A DNA stretch of 64,000 nucleotides from Escherichia phage ECO103 4-12-1. Below are positions 41,641 to 64,000 of this stretch, one piece after another. Positions within the stretch are counted from its first letter, which is position 1. Each line of letters begins with the position of its first letter. A program made the translations under genes and the position numbers. The stretch is from the sequence record OR844650; one strand, given 5' to 3'. Below the pieces are notes generated by a model. It searched no databases and had not been told where the DNA came from. It saw only the letters and a program-made list of their open reading frames with translations.

Positions 41641-42138
41641 TTAAGTCACTGCATTATACTTCTCTATAGCATTAGTAATATTTAATATAGCTTCAGGAAC
41701 CATTTCTTTATTGTATTCACGTTTTAAATTTTCCATTTTCTTAATAATTTCCAAGAAAAATGGCAAAATACATGAAGTATCTGTAAAATTACATGAGTAC
41801 AAAGTACTCATTTGAAATAATTCACCTGAATCAATATTAAGAGTATTGTATTCCTTAACAATGTTTTCGTTTGAATTGAAAATGTGAAATACTGTTCCCA
41901 TGTGATGAAGATATACACCATTCTCATTTTGAATATTGCATGGTGTGATTACAATAGCAGTGTTGTCAATATTATTTACTATTGATAAACGTAGACTATG
42001 TAAACCTAAAATAACAGTACAATCACTTGAACTGCTTTGAATTTGGTCAGCAGTTTGTGTAACACTTGTAATATTTTCCCCATCAAGACAACTCTTGATT
42101 TTATCAAATGAATTTTTCATTGATTTAGTTAGATACAT
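41641..42138 (-). CDS. FQxS-motif family protein
   Basis: Motif SGELFQMSTLYS. Confidence 0.55.
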   Translation of the reverse strand: MYLTKSMKNSFDKIKSCLDGENITSVTQTADQIQSSSSDCTVILGLHSLRLSIVNNIDNTAIVITPCNIQNENGVYLHHMGTVFHIFNSNENIVKEYNTLNIDSGELFQMSTLYSCNFTDTSCILPFFLEIIKKMENLKREYNKEMVPEAILNITNAIEKYNAVT

Positions 42139-42542
42139 TTATGAACACCTTCGAAATATTTGATTAATGATTTTATCATATCGCTACTAATGCCATGTAA
42201 GTCAACACCTAAACACTCGTATTGAAAAAAATCAATATCCTCCAGTGTGTTTAGATCAATTTCCACCTTATCATGACCCAACGAATTCATAATAACATTT
42301 TTATCATTAATTGTCAAGAAAGTTTTTTTATTTGAACCTAAAAAGATTTTTACATGTTTTTTTGGCATTACATCATAAGATAAAGATTGTGAACCATAAA
42401 TGTATATGCCTTCCATTGAACCAATATCTATAAAATATAGACGAATCCCTTTGTGGTATTTTGACTCCTTAGTCATCGCCTCTATTAGTTCATCTGTGGT
42501 TGTTAACCTTGTTTCTTTCTTCTCTAAATTGCTCAAATGCAT
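42129..42542 (-). CDS. FQxS-motif family protein (diverged)
   Basis: Motif EDIDFFQYECLG. Confidence 0.45.
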   Translation of the reverse strand: MHLSNLEKKETRLTTTDELIEAMTKESKYHKGIRLYFIDIGSMEGIYIYGSQSLSYDVMPKKHVKIFLGSNKKTFLTINDKNVIMNSLGHDKVEIDLNTLEDIDFFQYECLGVDLHGISSDMIKSLIKYFEGVHKCI

Positions 42543-42963
42543 AAAATAATACCTTGATCATTTGTAATGTTTCTGACATTACATCAGCAGAAAATTGAAC
42601 ATCAGTGTATTTTACCATAGTACTTTGAGTAAAGAAAGTAGCTTCAATATCTTCAAGGTCAAATGGCTCATCAAATAAATTAGTACTGAACATATCAGTT
42701 TTTTTCTTATAAGTCAACATAAACTTAGCACTGTATCTCAATACAATTTCATCTTTACTTACTAAAATTCGTGCAATGTTCTGTCTACCCAGTGTTGTAA
42801 TGTTAACATTAAACGTATTCTTTCGTGCCTCAACAATATCAACGAAATAACCATCACCTTGGTAAACGTTATGACGAACTTCTAATCCTTGTTGAACTGT
42901 ATTGAACAGTGCGTCCTGGATAAAATAATTTGCAGTATCGATGTTTCCTAAAATATCTAACAT
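42490..42963 (-). CDS. FQxS-motif family protein (diverged)
   Basis: Motif EATFFTQSTMVKY. Confidence 0.5.
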   Translation of the reverse strand: MLDILGNIDTANYFIQDALFNTVQQGLEVRHNVYQGDGYFVDIVEARKNTFNVNITTLGRQNIARILVSKDEIVLRYSAKFMLTYKKKTDMFSTNLFDEPFDLEDIEATFFTQSTMVKYTDVQFSADVMSETLQMIKVLFYAFEQFREERNKVNNHR

Positions 42964-43493
42964 AACTTCTCCTTTATAGCTGTCATATTTAGAAGAAATT
43001 CAGTAAGCAATTCCTCCGTAACATGCTCTGTATACCAGAATATCACAATATCTTTTGAAAGTCGTGTATTCATAAAAATATCTACTAACTCTTTGTAGAA
43101 CTCTAGTGTTTCGAGATTTGTGAGAATTAACGAGTACTGAAAGAGTAATTCTTCCGTTAGATTAAATTCTGGATAAAGTAAATCATTGAACTCATGTGAT
43201 GCAGTTTGAACTTTAATTTCTTTGAAGTTATTGGTTATACAACCGGAATAAATATTTCTGTGCAACTCTCTGTACAACGCAGCATAATCTATGAATTTTG
43301 CTTTAGGGTTAAAATCAAGAACACTTTCACCTTTATATGACAATCGGTGGAACGCCGAGAACATAGTCACTTCCCACGGTTGCTTAATATCTAGCTCAGT
43401 GATATCAATATTATTGGACAGAAGAACCGTAAAAATCTCACCAATCTTTAATAGTAATTTTGTACGTGCCAGTGCTACCATCGGTTCAGACAT
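42957..43493 (-). CDS. FQxS-motif family protein
   Basis: Motif EELLFQYSLIL. Confidence 0.55.
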   Translation of the reverse strand: MSEPMVALARTKLLLKIGEIFTVLLSNNIDITELDIKQPWEVTMFSAFHRLSYKGESVLDFNPKAKFIDYAALYRELHRNIYSGCITNNFKEIKVQTASHEFNDLLYPEFNLTEELLFQYSLILTNLETLEFYKELVDIFMNTRLSKDIVIFWYTEHVTEELLTEFLLNMTAIKEKLC

Positions 43494-43906
43494 TATACAC
43501 CTTCATATTCATCAAGAAAATCTTCGATAATCATTTCAGCTTCATCCATATGCATAGCATCAACTTCAATGATGCGAACTTTAGATGCATCCCAAATCAT
43601 AAAGCTAGGAACATTGTCTGGCTCGTAATCATTTTTGTACTGAACAGCATCATAACCTTGAGCAGTGCAATTCTCAATAAGTGAACGCCACTCATCATCA
43701 CTGCCTAAATCTTCACACAGAAGCACGTTATCAACATCAACTTCTAAGGTATGCAAGTATACTGTACATGCGTCTACTACGTTCAGTGGGCTTCTCAGCT
43801 TGCGTAATGCAGCTTCCAAAGCACTGTGTTTACCTCCCATATGAAGACCACCATACGGGATATAAAAGTTATCAATTTTTACAGTACTCGCATGATACAG
43901 TTTCAT
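43493..43906 (-). CDS. hypothetical protein (not a family member)
   Basis: 137-aa ORF lacking the motif, embedded in the array. Confidence 0.5.
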   Translation of the reverse strand: MKLYHASTVKIDNFYIPYGGLHMGGKHSALEAALRKLRSPLNVVDACTVYLHTLEVDVDNVLLCEDLGSDDEWRSLIENCTAQGYDAVQYKNDYEPDNVPSFMIWDASKVRIIEVDAMHMDEAEMIIEDFLDEYEGV

Positions 43907-43915
43907 ATTTCATTC

Positions 43916-62297: not shown

Positions 62298-62921
62298 TCA
62301 TACATTAACAACTTTATCGATGTAATCTTCTAACATATCAATATATCTGGTATTGGTTCTAACTAAAAGGTATGCAAATCCAGAGAACTCCTGTGTATAA
62401 TGCTTTACAGCGTACATACAACGAAGCTTATCATTGTCATACATTGTACTGTACTGAAACAAACTCTCGTCTGATAGCTCTAATAACGCTTGGGCTTCAC
62501 TTCTCGTGAACTTCATAGGGTCATGTACTGCATCACAAAAACAAACCTGTGTCTCGCTATTGAAACCCTGTGATAGATATATACCTTCACACTCTGAACG
62601 CACCGATACTGCATTATAACTATGTGTTGCCCCCATCATATCTGAACTCAAAACTAAAATCAACCCATTTTTATTTTTAATCAACAAATCTGACTTAAGG
62701 GATTTTATCTCCGTATGGGAAATATCACCAAATCTTCCTGGGACTTCAAACTTATCAACGTTGTATACAATCTTTTGTACTTGCTCTTTTAAACGCTTAA
62801 TTGCACTTCTGTCTTTTTCTAATGTATCTAATAAACTCATTGAACTCATTGTACTTTCCTTACATATTTGTACCGAACAAAACGGAACTTTGAATGCCAT
62901 TAATCGACACTTCATGTACAT
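62298..62921 (-). CDS. FQxS-motif family protein
   Basis: Motif DESLFQYSTMYD; likely start MSSMSLLDTLEK. Confidence 0.55.
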   Translation of the reverse strand: MYMKCRLMAFKVPFCSVQICKESTMSSMSLLDTLEKDRSAIKRLKEQVQKIVYNVDKFEVPGRFGDISHTEIKSLKSDLLIKNKNGLILVLSSDMMGATHSYNAVSVRSECEGIYLSQGFNSETQVCFCDAVHDPMKFTRSEAQALLELSDESLFQYSTMYDNDKLRCMYAVKHYTQEFSGFAYLLVRTNTRYIDMLEDYIDKVVNV

Positions 62922-63204
62922 ATATATTTTGTCTGAATACCTGAAGCAATTGAACTAAACTTTGTTGCATAATAATATGCATATGTACATTATCAAAGGC
63001 CGTTTCGTATTGGAATCGTGCCGCTTCATCTTCTATGAAATTCGGAACTTGGACTGGATTCTCAAAATTTGTCCTTGTACTGAACTGTACATCATTGTCC
63101 TGTACCTTAATACCATATGAATTATCATTGTTATCAACTACATCAAATTCAATTAAACTACCATCTTTACTGACGTTTACTATATAAACTGAAAATCGAC
63201 TCAT
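62860..63204 (-). CDS. FQxS-motif family protein (diverged)
   Basis: Motif DEAARFQYETAFD. Confidence 0.45.
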   Translation of the reverse strand: MSRFSVYIVNVSKDGSLIEFDVVDNNDNSYGIKVQDNDVQFSTRTNFENPVQVPNFIEDEAARFQYETAFDNVHMHIIMQQSLVQLLQVFRQNIYVHEVSINGIQSSVLFGTNM

Positions 63205-63716
63205 AAACCTATTTCCTCTAAATCTTTGACAAATGTATCATAATCCGATAATGACAAAAATATGTCTGTACTGATGTTTTGACGTAATGTATTAAACAAA
63301 TTATGTACCTGTAATAAATCAGGTGCATAAATCAGGGATTGCTGGAAATACGATTCTTCTGTATCTAATATATCCCTGCACTCAATTTCACGAACTCGTT
63401 GGTATATTGAATTTAATAATACATTTTCATCTTTGAGCATTGGAAGGTATCGGATGTACATGTTCTCCATCAACTCATCTTGGATTGAACCCCTGAACTG
63501 CAACACGTATTCAAAACACATCACTACATCTTGTAGGTAATTGGCACTGTACTGATTACTATACACGATTTTATGACAACTGAACTCGGAATCATTTCTG
63601 AACCAATTGTTACCCTCTTTCCTGTACTTATGACTAAGCTTCCCATCCTCCAACGCTCGAATGAACTTCATAATGTTAATTGCAAAATCATATGAATGAT
63701 GCTTGTGTTGATGCAT
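63201..63716 (-). CDS. FQxS-motif family protein
   Basis: Motif EESYFQQSLIYA. Confidence 0.55.
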   Translation of the reverse strand: MHQHKHHSYDFAINIMKFIRALEDGKLSHKYRKEGNNWFRNDSEFSCHKIVYSNQYSANYLQDVVMCFEYVLQFRGSIQDELMENMYIRYLPMLKDENVLLNSIYQRVREIECRDILDTEESYFQQSLIYAPDLLQVHNLFNTLRQNISTDIFLSLSDYDTFVKDLEEIGL

Positions 63717-63724
63717 TTTTTACC

Positions 63725-63919
63725 TCAATTCTGTCCGAAAAAATAACCAAAATGTTTAAAGCAAGAAAGCATTACTATGTTCATCACTCTATCATCAAAT
63801 TCATCTTGTGTTTCTGCACATAATGTTTCACAGATATTCAAATGTAATAATTCAAGCTGGAAACTGTCGGTGAACCAATCAAACTTACGGTATTTTTGTT
63901 TAACATCAACTGTAAGCAT
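63725..63919 (-). CDS. hypothetical protein (possible family member)
   Basis: 64-aa ORF with FTDSFQLELLHL; the array appears to continue past the window end. Confidence 0.4.
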   Translation of the reverse strand: MLTVDVKQKYRKFDWFTDSFQLELLHLNICETLCAETQDEFDDRVMNIVMLSCFKHFGYFFGQN

Positions 63920-64000
63920 ACTATATATCCAACCCTTTTACAACATCTACGAAATGTTCAAACACTTCTTTTGAAAAATAACCACCTTCACAAAAAAGCA

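Follow-up and report, generated by a model that had tools for sequence, protein, structure and literature searches.

Large families of paralogous genes have been noted in jumbo bacteriophages, most directly by Hua et al. (2017; PMC5646251), who mention in one sentence '>30 very similar genes' in phages 121Q and G, a point restated in the phAPEC6 paper and in a 2026 review. In the RaK2 paper ~10% of gene products are described as paralogues, and Bacillus phage G encodes ~35 zinc-ribbon proteins that represent a lineage-specific expansion (Iyer et al. 2021, PMC7824862). Here we describe a tandem array of small genes within a 64,000-nucleotide stretch of Escherichia phage ECO103 4-12-1 (sequence record OR844650; hereafter the window), whose products share a Phe-Gln (F-Q) dyad within an acidic motif. 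The 121Q array of Hua et al. is probably the same locus. The expansions in phages G and 121Q represent the same phenomenon as this FQ array, but the FQ copies are highly divergent and carry no zinc-ribbon or DNA-binding signature. A literature search found no family definition, motif, fold, distribution or selection analysis for the array. Viral multigene families are a known phenomenon, and the novelty lies in this particular family, in its scale and in its invariant dyad.

The source phage is an Asteriusvirus jumbo coliphage. Between 50 and 60 kb the window is 98.6% identical to phAPEC6, 96–98% identical to 121Q, PBECO4, G17 and Sharanji, and 85.6% identical to EC.P1. Its GC content is ~32% and nearly every gene lies on the minus strand. 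From 41.6 to 64 kb the genes are 100% minus strand and overlaps occur at 40 of 51 gene junctions, in 14 cases of the 4-bp ATGA type, which bears out the run of overlapping minus-strand genes described in the original prediction, made from the sequence alone. The phAPEC6 counterpart is gp404c-gp466c, annotated as 'hypothetical protein' throughout.

41641..64000, minus strand: main tandem array of the FQ-motif family, cut by the window edge; it runs ~6.3 kb further in phAPEC6, up to gp466c.

Of the 44 array open reading frames (ORFs) of at least 90 aa, 30 contain the motif FQx[ST], compared with 3 of 64 in the rest of the window (Fisher p = 8e-13); shuffling the residues of the array proteins yields 1.5 on average and 6 at most. 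The motif Phe is a median of 51.5 residues from the C-terminus (range 39–74), and 83% of motifs have at least two Asp or Glu among the five preceding residues. A shared array motif with an acidic lead-in, 40–60 residues from the C-terminus, had been anticipated in these terms. BLASTP among the array proteins joins small sub-clusters only. An iterative profile hidden Markov model (HMM) seeded with a 10-member BLASTP cluster gains members at E<1e-3 in each round and converges on 32–33 ORFs. We defined the family by a profile-HMM match together with an F-Q dyad 39–74 residues from the C-terminus and an acidic pair before the dyad. A broad 257-sequence HMM finds 34 window members at E<1e-3, including both genes dispersed at 28.5–29.8 kb; FQ is present in 33 of the 34, as is the relaxed motif FQx[STNCA]. 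The earlier count of at least 35 motif-bearing genes was therefore slightly too high, and the estimate of ~40 for the family includes degenerate members. Several motif-poor array ORFs are members through positional orthology with RaK2. In a 32-sequence alignment F and Q are invariant while mean column identity is 14%, in keeping with the high divergence predicted outside the motif. An alignment of 250 family members retains F in all 250, Q in 247 and S in 217, with the two Glu present in 199 and 195, and the conserved motif positions i, i+1, i+4 and i+5 form one helix face. Judged from sequence, the array proteins are true homologues, more than motif sharers. They are ~105–205 aa long with a median isoelectric point of 4.96 and a net charge of -9.5.

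The genes are listed below with E-values from the broad 257-sequence HMM unless stated otherwise.

63201..63716, minus strand: family member (TEESYFQQSLIY), E=5e-15.
62860..63204, minus strand: divergent family member (EDEAARFQYETAF), E=5e-4.
62298..62921, minus strand: family member (SDESLFQYSTMY), E=7e-24.
61121..61606, minus strand: short-type family member (DDAALFQEALVF), E=6e-13.
60592..60963, minus strand: short-type member (SEEEFFQESTVW), E=2e-9.
60236..60592, minus strand: short-type member (DTAELFQESLVF), modelled as the short form, E=1e-12.
59880..60239, minus strand: short-type member (DDGELFQAALVF), E=4e-9.
57546-57998, 57976-58464, 58464-58907, 58904-59374 and 59376-59870, minus strand: five recently duplicated long-type members forming a BLASTP cluster, E=4e-21 to 4e-28.
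57235..57549, minus strand: short-type member (HESFIFQESLVW), E=5e-6.
56927..57235, minus strand: embedded non-family gene (phrog_11429), E=0.56, reciprocal best hit of RaK2 L004_3714.
56481..56930, minus strand: family member (TEEGYFQGSTVY), E=2e-22, the sole match to the strict site consensus of tobacco etch virus (TEV) protease.
55948..56484, minus strand: divergent member (FDEQCFQLSCTD), E=4e-4, reciprocal best hit of RaK2 L004_13960.
55033..55593, minus strand: family member (TEENIFQNSVLH), E=5e-10.
54440..55042, minus strand: array ORF without detectable family signal (phrog_33500), no HMM match.
54072..54434, minus strand: short-type member (QEDELFQESLVW), E=1e-11.
53705..54148, minus strand: family member (GEEEMFQYSTVF), E=7e-11.
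53385..53726, minus strand: short-type member (DEGELFQESLVF), E=7e-10.
52841..53425, minus strand: family member (NQEYYFQLSLLF), E=2e-22.
52305-52781 (TEEEFFQYSTVY), 51814-52308 (TEEMYFQESCIH), 51486-51848 (SEEELFQESTIS), 51089-51502 (TPDELFQYSLVL) and 50598-51101 (SEESYFQNSLIY), minus strand: five consecutive members, E=5e-8 to 2e-21.
50072..50614, minus strand: degenerate member lacking the motif, HMM not significant, assigned by positional orthology (reciprocal best hit of RaK2 L004_24412, which has EEEMFQLSLV).
49512-50075 (LESAMFQLSLIH) and 49001-49567 (TDEVLFQLSTIC), minus strand: two members, E=1e-14 and 8e-12, the former a collinear orthologue of RaK2 L004_23272.
47766-48350 (RDAFIFQKSLLD) and 47198-47779 (VEEELFQMSTVI), minus strand: two members, E=2e-4 and 8e-11.
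46267..46776, minus strand: degenerate member (IEEIEFQNNTLS), reciprocal best hit of RaK2 L004_26692, which has EELEFQYSTI.
45702-46283 (GEENYFQLSTIH) and 45089-45640 (SEEQHFQLSTLH), minus strand: two members forming a BLASTP pair, broad HMM E=3e-3 and 4e-8, iterative HMM E=3.5e-17 and 5e-13.
43916-44500 (EERLFQELCVS) and 44490-45092 (no FQ; collinear with RaK2 L004_28940), minus strand: two borderline or degenerate members.
43493..43906, minus strand: embedded non-family gene, 61% identity to RaK2 ORF435, also related to GAP32_055.
42957-43493 (TEELLFQYSLIL) and 41641-42138 (SGELFQMSTLY), minus strand: members at the promoter-distal array end.
42490-42963 (42% identity to RaK2 ORF437) and 42129-42542 (DIDFFQYECLG), minus strand: degenerate members at the promoter-distal array end.
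29196-29774 (LPEHFQISTLYD) and 28510-29199 (SEEEHFQLMM), minus strand: two dispersed members ~12 kb downstream of the array, E=1e-5 and 8e-8.

All five recent long-type duplicates (57546..59870) carry [ST]EEYYFQ. The dispersed pair, already suspected of membership, reaches E=1.5e-20 in the iterative HMM, and the two genes singled out as unrelated interruptions (43493-43906 and 56927-57235) are indeed non-members, both with RaK2 orthologues. The true start of 62298..62921 is probably the internal MSSMSLLD, where its homologues P0030 and P0041 begin, and that of 61121..61606 is probably MEIKYNEF. In a separate 242-aa ORF, P0001, orthologues of the adjacent short types 61121-61606 and 60236-60592 are joined with two FQ motifs, which reflects either a natural fusion of tandem domains or an artefact of sequencing.

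Two products were modelled using AlphaFold2 with the family alignment. The long-form model (57976-58464, 162 aa) has a predicted local distance difference test (pLDDT) score of 89.7 and a predicted template modelling score (pTM) of 0.83. It runs from an N-terminal helix through a seven-stranded beta region to a short helix at residues 109–115 (EEYYFQ), followed by a tight STLYN connector, a long helix (121–135), a strand (141–144) and a final helix. Low confidence in the beta region is confined to an acidic loop at residues 41–50, while the motif helix has a pLDDT of ~97. The short-form model (60236-60592, 118 aa; pLDDT 84.3) consists of sheet, motif helix, long helix and terminal strand, with neither of the terminal helices. 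The models show each member as a predicted divergent beta-sheet followed by a constant module of short motif helix, long helix and terminal beta-strand. The motif helix has the consensus [ST]-E-E-x-[YFL]-F-Q-x-S-[TL]-[VIL]-[YFWH]-[DN].

As the original prediction had reported, the family matches no characterised family, and it resembles no solved fold; the confident match to a characterised domain that could have overturned this did not appear. In Pfam-A none of 10 members reaches the cut-off (best DUF3741, 19.5 bits against 24), NCBIfam gives scattered single matches only for 32 members (E>=1e-3), the PADLOC-DB defence profiles give just two single-member matches for the same number (E=2e-3 and 2e-2), and PDB searches by sequence and by fold return no match for the family. 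Window members match PHROGs 9317, 12674, 34017, 15629, 13866, 30243, 35776 and others with E down to 1e-142 and with cross-hits between groups, every one annotated 'unknown function'; PHROGs thus divides one superfamily among many groups. A beta-clamp-binding motif (Q-x-S-L-x-F against QL[SD]LF or QLxLx[LF]) was considered and rejected, there being one chance-level QLSLL in 44 ORFs; at the key hydrophobic position of this comparison Thr is about as frequent as Leu in the family.

The embedded gene 43493-43906 is located inside the array at an equal relative position in Asteriusvirus, RaK2 and GAP32, and its product is far better conserved than its neighbours, with homologues in RaK2 ORF435, GAP32_055 and CBB_59. 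Because 25 alignment columns are invariant, many at polar residues (H22, S28, R35, H52, D66, Y90, N92, E95, D97, D121 and E124), the product is probably an enzyme. Profile searches of Pfam and PDB gave no supported match for it, and a DarT/ART-like reading of its N-terminal LYHAST...IDNF...GGLH found no support there. Its RecA matches are artefacts in which weak repeats are summed in engineered multi-copy chains.

The conserved helix face and this embedded gene together bear on the main alternative, in which the family comprises adaptors or substrate receptors whose EE-x-x-FQ face docks to one common hub, such as a host protease, RNA polymerase, the ribosome or a phage enzyme like the 43493-43906 product, while each variable sheet recruits a different target. 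The near-complete retention of F (250/250) and Q (247/250), with ~78–80% Glu at each of the two acidic positions, on one face of a helix at 14% overall identity would suit a docking surface, as would a probable enzyme held at the same relative array position in three genera. However, pLDDT peaks in the motif region, which is located between secondary-structure elements in the manner of a core element, S/T108 and D/N120 resemble helix N-caps, and the embedded product matches no enzyme family. We consider this reading unlikely. Slightly less probable again is its fuller form, a set of ~45 interchangeable substrate receptors whose EE-x-x-FQ face plugs into one hub and whose hypervariable sheets capture different host defence or housekeeping proteins; that hub may be RNA polymerase, a protease or chaperone of the host, or the conserved enzyme-like product of the embedded gene. 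If true, the set would be a bacterial-virus analogue of the F-box, BTB and PRANC adaptor expansions.

Reciprocal best hits between phAPEC6 and RaK2 separate two halves of the array. The promoter-distal half (~41.6–50.6 kb) is collinear one-to-one at 22–34% identity, against 58–64% for non-family genes that flank the array or lie within it. Correspondence to RaK2 is many-to-one in the promoter-proximal half, with the five [ST]EEYYFQ genes (57.5–59.9 kb) corresponding to two RaK2 genes, which points to lineage-specific tandem expansion there. This comparison shows that the array predates the split between Asteriusvirus and Alcyoneusvirus. The term hyper-expanded, used of the array at the outset, is apt for a very large family but misses that it is not simply recent, about half being collinear with another genus.

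Selection was tested against EC.P1, an 86% identical phage. Family orthologues (n=30) have a median dN of 0.137, dS of 0.525 and omega of 0.20, against 0.082, 0.527 and 0.17 for neighbouring genes (n=38), so that family dN is ~1.7x that of the neighbours. No gene-wide positive selection was found relative to EC.P1, no family gene exceeding an omega of 0.52. The swing of dS from 0.03 to >3 between adjacent genes indicates recombinational mosaicism. Among the five recent paralogues the sheet segment has 19% identity, indels and an omega of 0.66 (maximum 0.93), while the motif and C-terminal segment has 49% identity and an omega of 0.32. The earlier description of the family as rapidly diversifying is upheld by the low identity of orthologues relative to neighbours and by the raised dN, but not by omega, which is ~0.20 and never above 1. 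These values show each retained copy to be under purifying selection, and the pattern shown is one of birth and death, with tandem duplication, divergence concentrated in the sheet and then preservation of each copy. The array is neither junk nor under ongoing gene-wide positive selection.

The same data bear on the proposal of Hua et al. (PMC5646251), repeated in the 2026 review, that such copies are redundant tandem duplicates filling an enlarged capsid by a ratchet. Copy number does differ among relatives as this would allow. Yet purifying selection acts on each copy (omega ~0.2), positional orthologues are retained across genera despite 22–34% identity, all reading frames are intact, and the copies, whose mean column identity is 14%, cannot be called 'very similar'; a role as genome filler is decidedly improbable.

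The family extends well beyond the window. An exhaustive profile search of 1.84 billion representatives returned 147 clusters (50% identity representatives), small proteins only, and the FQ-containing motif is kept in 169 of 182 retrieved proteins. Fold matches in BFVD come from 121Q, RaK2, GAP32, Serratia phage BF and Yersinia phage fHe-Yen9-03. Counted as HMM members at E<1e-3 per genome, there are 41 in phAPEC6, 45 in EC.P1, 30 in EJP2, 31 in Klebsiella phage RaK2 (at a syntenic site upstream of the same Dam and cytidylyltransferase genes), 4 in GAP32 and 2 in CBB (both Mimasvirus), and at least 24 in 20.5 kb of a metagenomic phage of 28% GC with almost no DNA similarity to known phages. 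The significant matches in CBB and GAP32 fall inside a syntenic block of 8–10 ORFs, and the F-Q dyad is kept also in CBB, GAP32 and EJP2 members. A DNA-pattern search for relatives gave mostly chance single matches, and the HMM was used as a filter. Single-copy relatives with the core [ST]EExxFQxS are found in Salmonella and Citrobacter, in the early or accessory regions of lambda-like temperate phages and of small serine-recombinase elements (L070 10001-10453 on a Citrobacter chromosome, L022 9044-9532 and L038 6346-6681). Conservation of the motif thus reaches far past the recent duplicates, as the original prediction would have it, and takes in RaK2, EJP2, GAP32, metagenomic phages and integrative elements of enterobacteria. 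Copy number varies from 2 (CBB) to 45 (EC.P1). Salmonella phage SD-1_S14 (OR699183.1 80000-118000) has many tiny fragmented ORFs across the array, with 677 features in 311 kb; its lower count (31) was not relied upon as evidence of natural deletions, the fragmentation suggesting assembly frameshift errors.

Immunity-gene islands are typically tandem arrays of small, acidic, divergent paralogues, and the array resembles them. Each copy might accordingly neutralise a different toxin in the style of poly-immunity, whether a host abortive-infection or toxin-antitoxin effector or a toxin of competing phages. One single-copy relative, in a lambda-like prophage, lies ~1 kb from a gene with a toxin-type Tlde1 domain, and the element with a Citrobacter relative also encodes an OLD-family nuclease. 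These neighbourhood links are loose, however, involving a different strand or operon; the family has no similarity to SUKH/Imm or other known immunity families, and the array is without cognate toxin genes. An immunity repertoire is improbable, to much the same degree as the set of interchangeable receptors.

Four sites in intergenic gaps of the array may bear on its expression.

61682-61655, minus strand: TTGACA-containing site.
52815..52844, minus strand: sigma-70 consensus promoter with extended -10 (TTGACA-18-TGnTATAAT), 12/12 match.
48941..49002, minus strand: terminator-like hairpin, then a sigma-70-like promoter (TTTACA-17-TGnTATACT).
45675..45697, minus strand: terminator-like hairpin.

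Host-takeover genes are expected next to terminal repeats by analogy with T5 and SPO1. The array of fEgEco12, a phage with experimentally confirmed 21-kb direct terminal repeats, occupies roughly 28–56 kb of the record, just inside the left repeat. That of CBB starts 64 bp past a 22.5-kb terminal repeat, GAP32 has annotated sigma-70 promoters in the same left-end region, and the terminal repeats of UE-S1 have been described as 'long-ended T5 type'. The CBB authors regarded this genome end as a continuation of the early region (PMC5259590); the literature holds no transcriptome that we could find for an array-carrying member of this phage group. From the position close to the terminal repeat, the consensus promoters in gaps and the translational coupling, we infer that the array genes are early and transcribed by host sigma-70 RNA polymerase.

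Other jumbo phages are known to have paralogous proteins inside the head, and 10 window members match ExxYxQ, resembling TEV or 3C-type sites (E-x-x-Y-x-Q|[GS]), with 56481-56930 (EEGYFQG) fitting the strict TEV consensus. The proteins could on these grounds be packaged and ejected, or processed by a protease at the motif. We reject the cleavage-site reading: a single array ORF of the 44 has strict E-x-x-Y-x-Q-[G/S], the position following Q varies widely (in most cases Y, E, Q, L or N), and the models place the motif in a confidently folded helix rather than an exposed linker. The annotated prohead protease of the phage is moreover a T4-type prohead core scaffold and protease (gp227c), and T4-type prohead protease cleaves after Glu. 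Electrospray ionisation tandem mass spectrometry of phAPEC6, with its limited sensitivity, identified 62 virion proteins, none between gp347 and gp549 and hence none of gp404c-gp466c (PMC7247149). The packaged proteins entertained in the original prediction are therefore disfavoured, and packaging or processing is scarcely probable. As several members contain TEV-like ExxYxQ sites, caution with TEV-cleavable tags is advisable.

The family is one of soluble, non-virion, acidic small proteins without a detectable fold relative. On the best-supported reading, to which we give about an even chance, the array would encode a repertoire of specific binders or inhibitors that share one scaffold, are made early and stay in the cytoplasm. 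Host sigma-70 RNA polymerase would transcribe the array early, its genes being translationally coupled, and each protein would bind or inhibit its own host protein there, one-to-one, serving host takeover, anti-defence or toxin neutralisation. Specificity would come from the variable sheet and loops, and the FQ module would be the structural keystone of the scaffold. The copy-number differences between genera (<=10, ~30 and ~45) may then reflect the breadth of host factors met by each lineage. An anti-defence or host-takeover role is plausible. Several points weigh against such a repertoire. The function proposed for it is deduced solely from genomic context and the pattern of evolution. Two Glu and a Gln lie on the conserved face of the motif helix, which would be uncommon in an element with only a structural role and is at least as well explained by a shared functional site, and HMM detection favours motif-bearing sequences. 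No omega above 1 by gene or by segment means no positive arms-race signature, with dS near saturation between paralogues. Promoter-like sites overall are not enriched (112 found against 122 expected), only those in intergenic gaps being persuasive.

A non-family gene flanks the array and served to find the syntenic array in 70 RaK2-like phage records.

41125..41598, minus strand: conserved flanking anchor gene.

It is 100% identical to the EC.P1/TH47/fEgEco12 clade and 94.9% to phAPEC6. With the 50–60 kb region matching phAPEC6 (98.6%), the ancestry of the window is, on these identities, mosaic. Upstream of the FQ array and past the window end, phAPEC6 gp467c-gp490c (L001 40300-46970) form a long run of ~70-aa ORFs that map many-to-one onto few RaK2 ORFs, which suggests a further paralogue array reaching towards the terminal repeat; it could equally be the array meant by Hua et al. 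Rfam and tRNA scans of the window gave no matches. Three other features were observed in the window.

32382-33791, minus strand: second small tandem paralogue cluster of five consecutive ~88–103-aa ORFs, linked by BLASTP.
35539-36324, minus strand: 261-aa ORF whose product has CapR-homology and DUF723 domains, located between the genes for Dam methylase (36321-36842) and cytidylyltransferase (35009-35542). As these two genes are directly adjacent in phAPEC6, EC.P1 and RaK2, the ORF is probably a mobile insertion of the homing type.
37756-38082: 327-bp non-coding gap with a TATAAT-containing promoter-like site, then a strong hairpin and T-run (AAGGTGAC...GTCACCTTTTTTT); without an Rfam match, it could be a small RNA or regulatory region.

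In a culturable E. coli phage, one family thus makes up ~8% of the genes (41–45 of roughly 550), is conserved across at least two genera and has single-copy relatives in enterobacterial mobile elements. To our knowledge it is among the largest paralogue families in a cultured phage. The E. coli host and many natural copy-number variants make it a tractable system for how large viruses build and maintain binder repertoires, and should its members prove to be factors for anti-defence or host takeover, dozens of new inhibitors, each with its own target, could be present in the array.

Among known systems, the T5 pre-early region and the SPO1 host-takeover module are terminal-repeat-proximal host-takeover modules of phages with long direct terminal repeats. 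They share with the FQ array clusters of small ORFs at or near these repeats and strong host-type promoters, but consist mostly of unrelated genes where ~45 paralogues are found here, and the early timing of the array is a prediction. Bacterial poly-immunity arrays (SUKH/Imm) likewise comprise small, acidic, alpha+beta paralogues at low identity, whereas the FQ array is phage-encoded, with no sequence or structural similarity to them and no associated toxin genes. Large eukaryotic DNA viruses carry multigene families such as the poxvirus Bcl-2-like immunomodulators, the African swine fever virus MGF360/505 genes and the poxvirus ankyrin/PRANC proteins, and poxviruses also have 'genomic accordions'. 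With these the FQ array shares tens of tandem paralogues near a genome end, one fold at very low identity, birth and death with lineage-specific amplification, a non-structural nature and one presumed target per paralogue. It differs in its bacterial host, its unrelated fold and the F-Q dyad present in nearly all copies.

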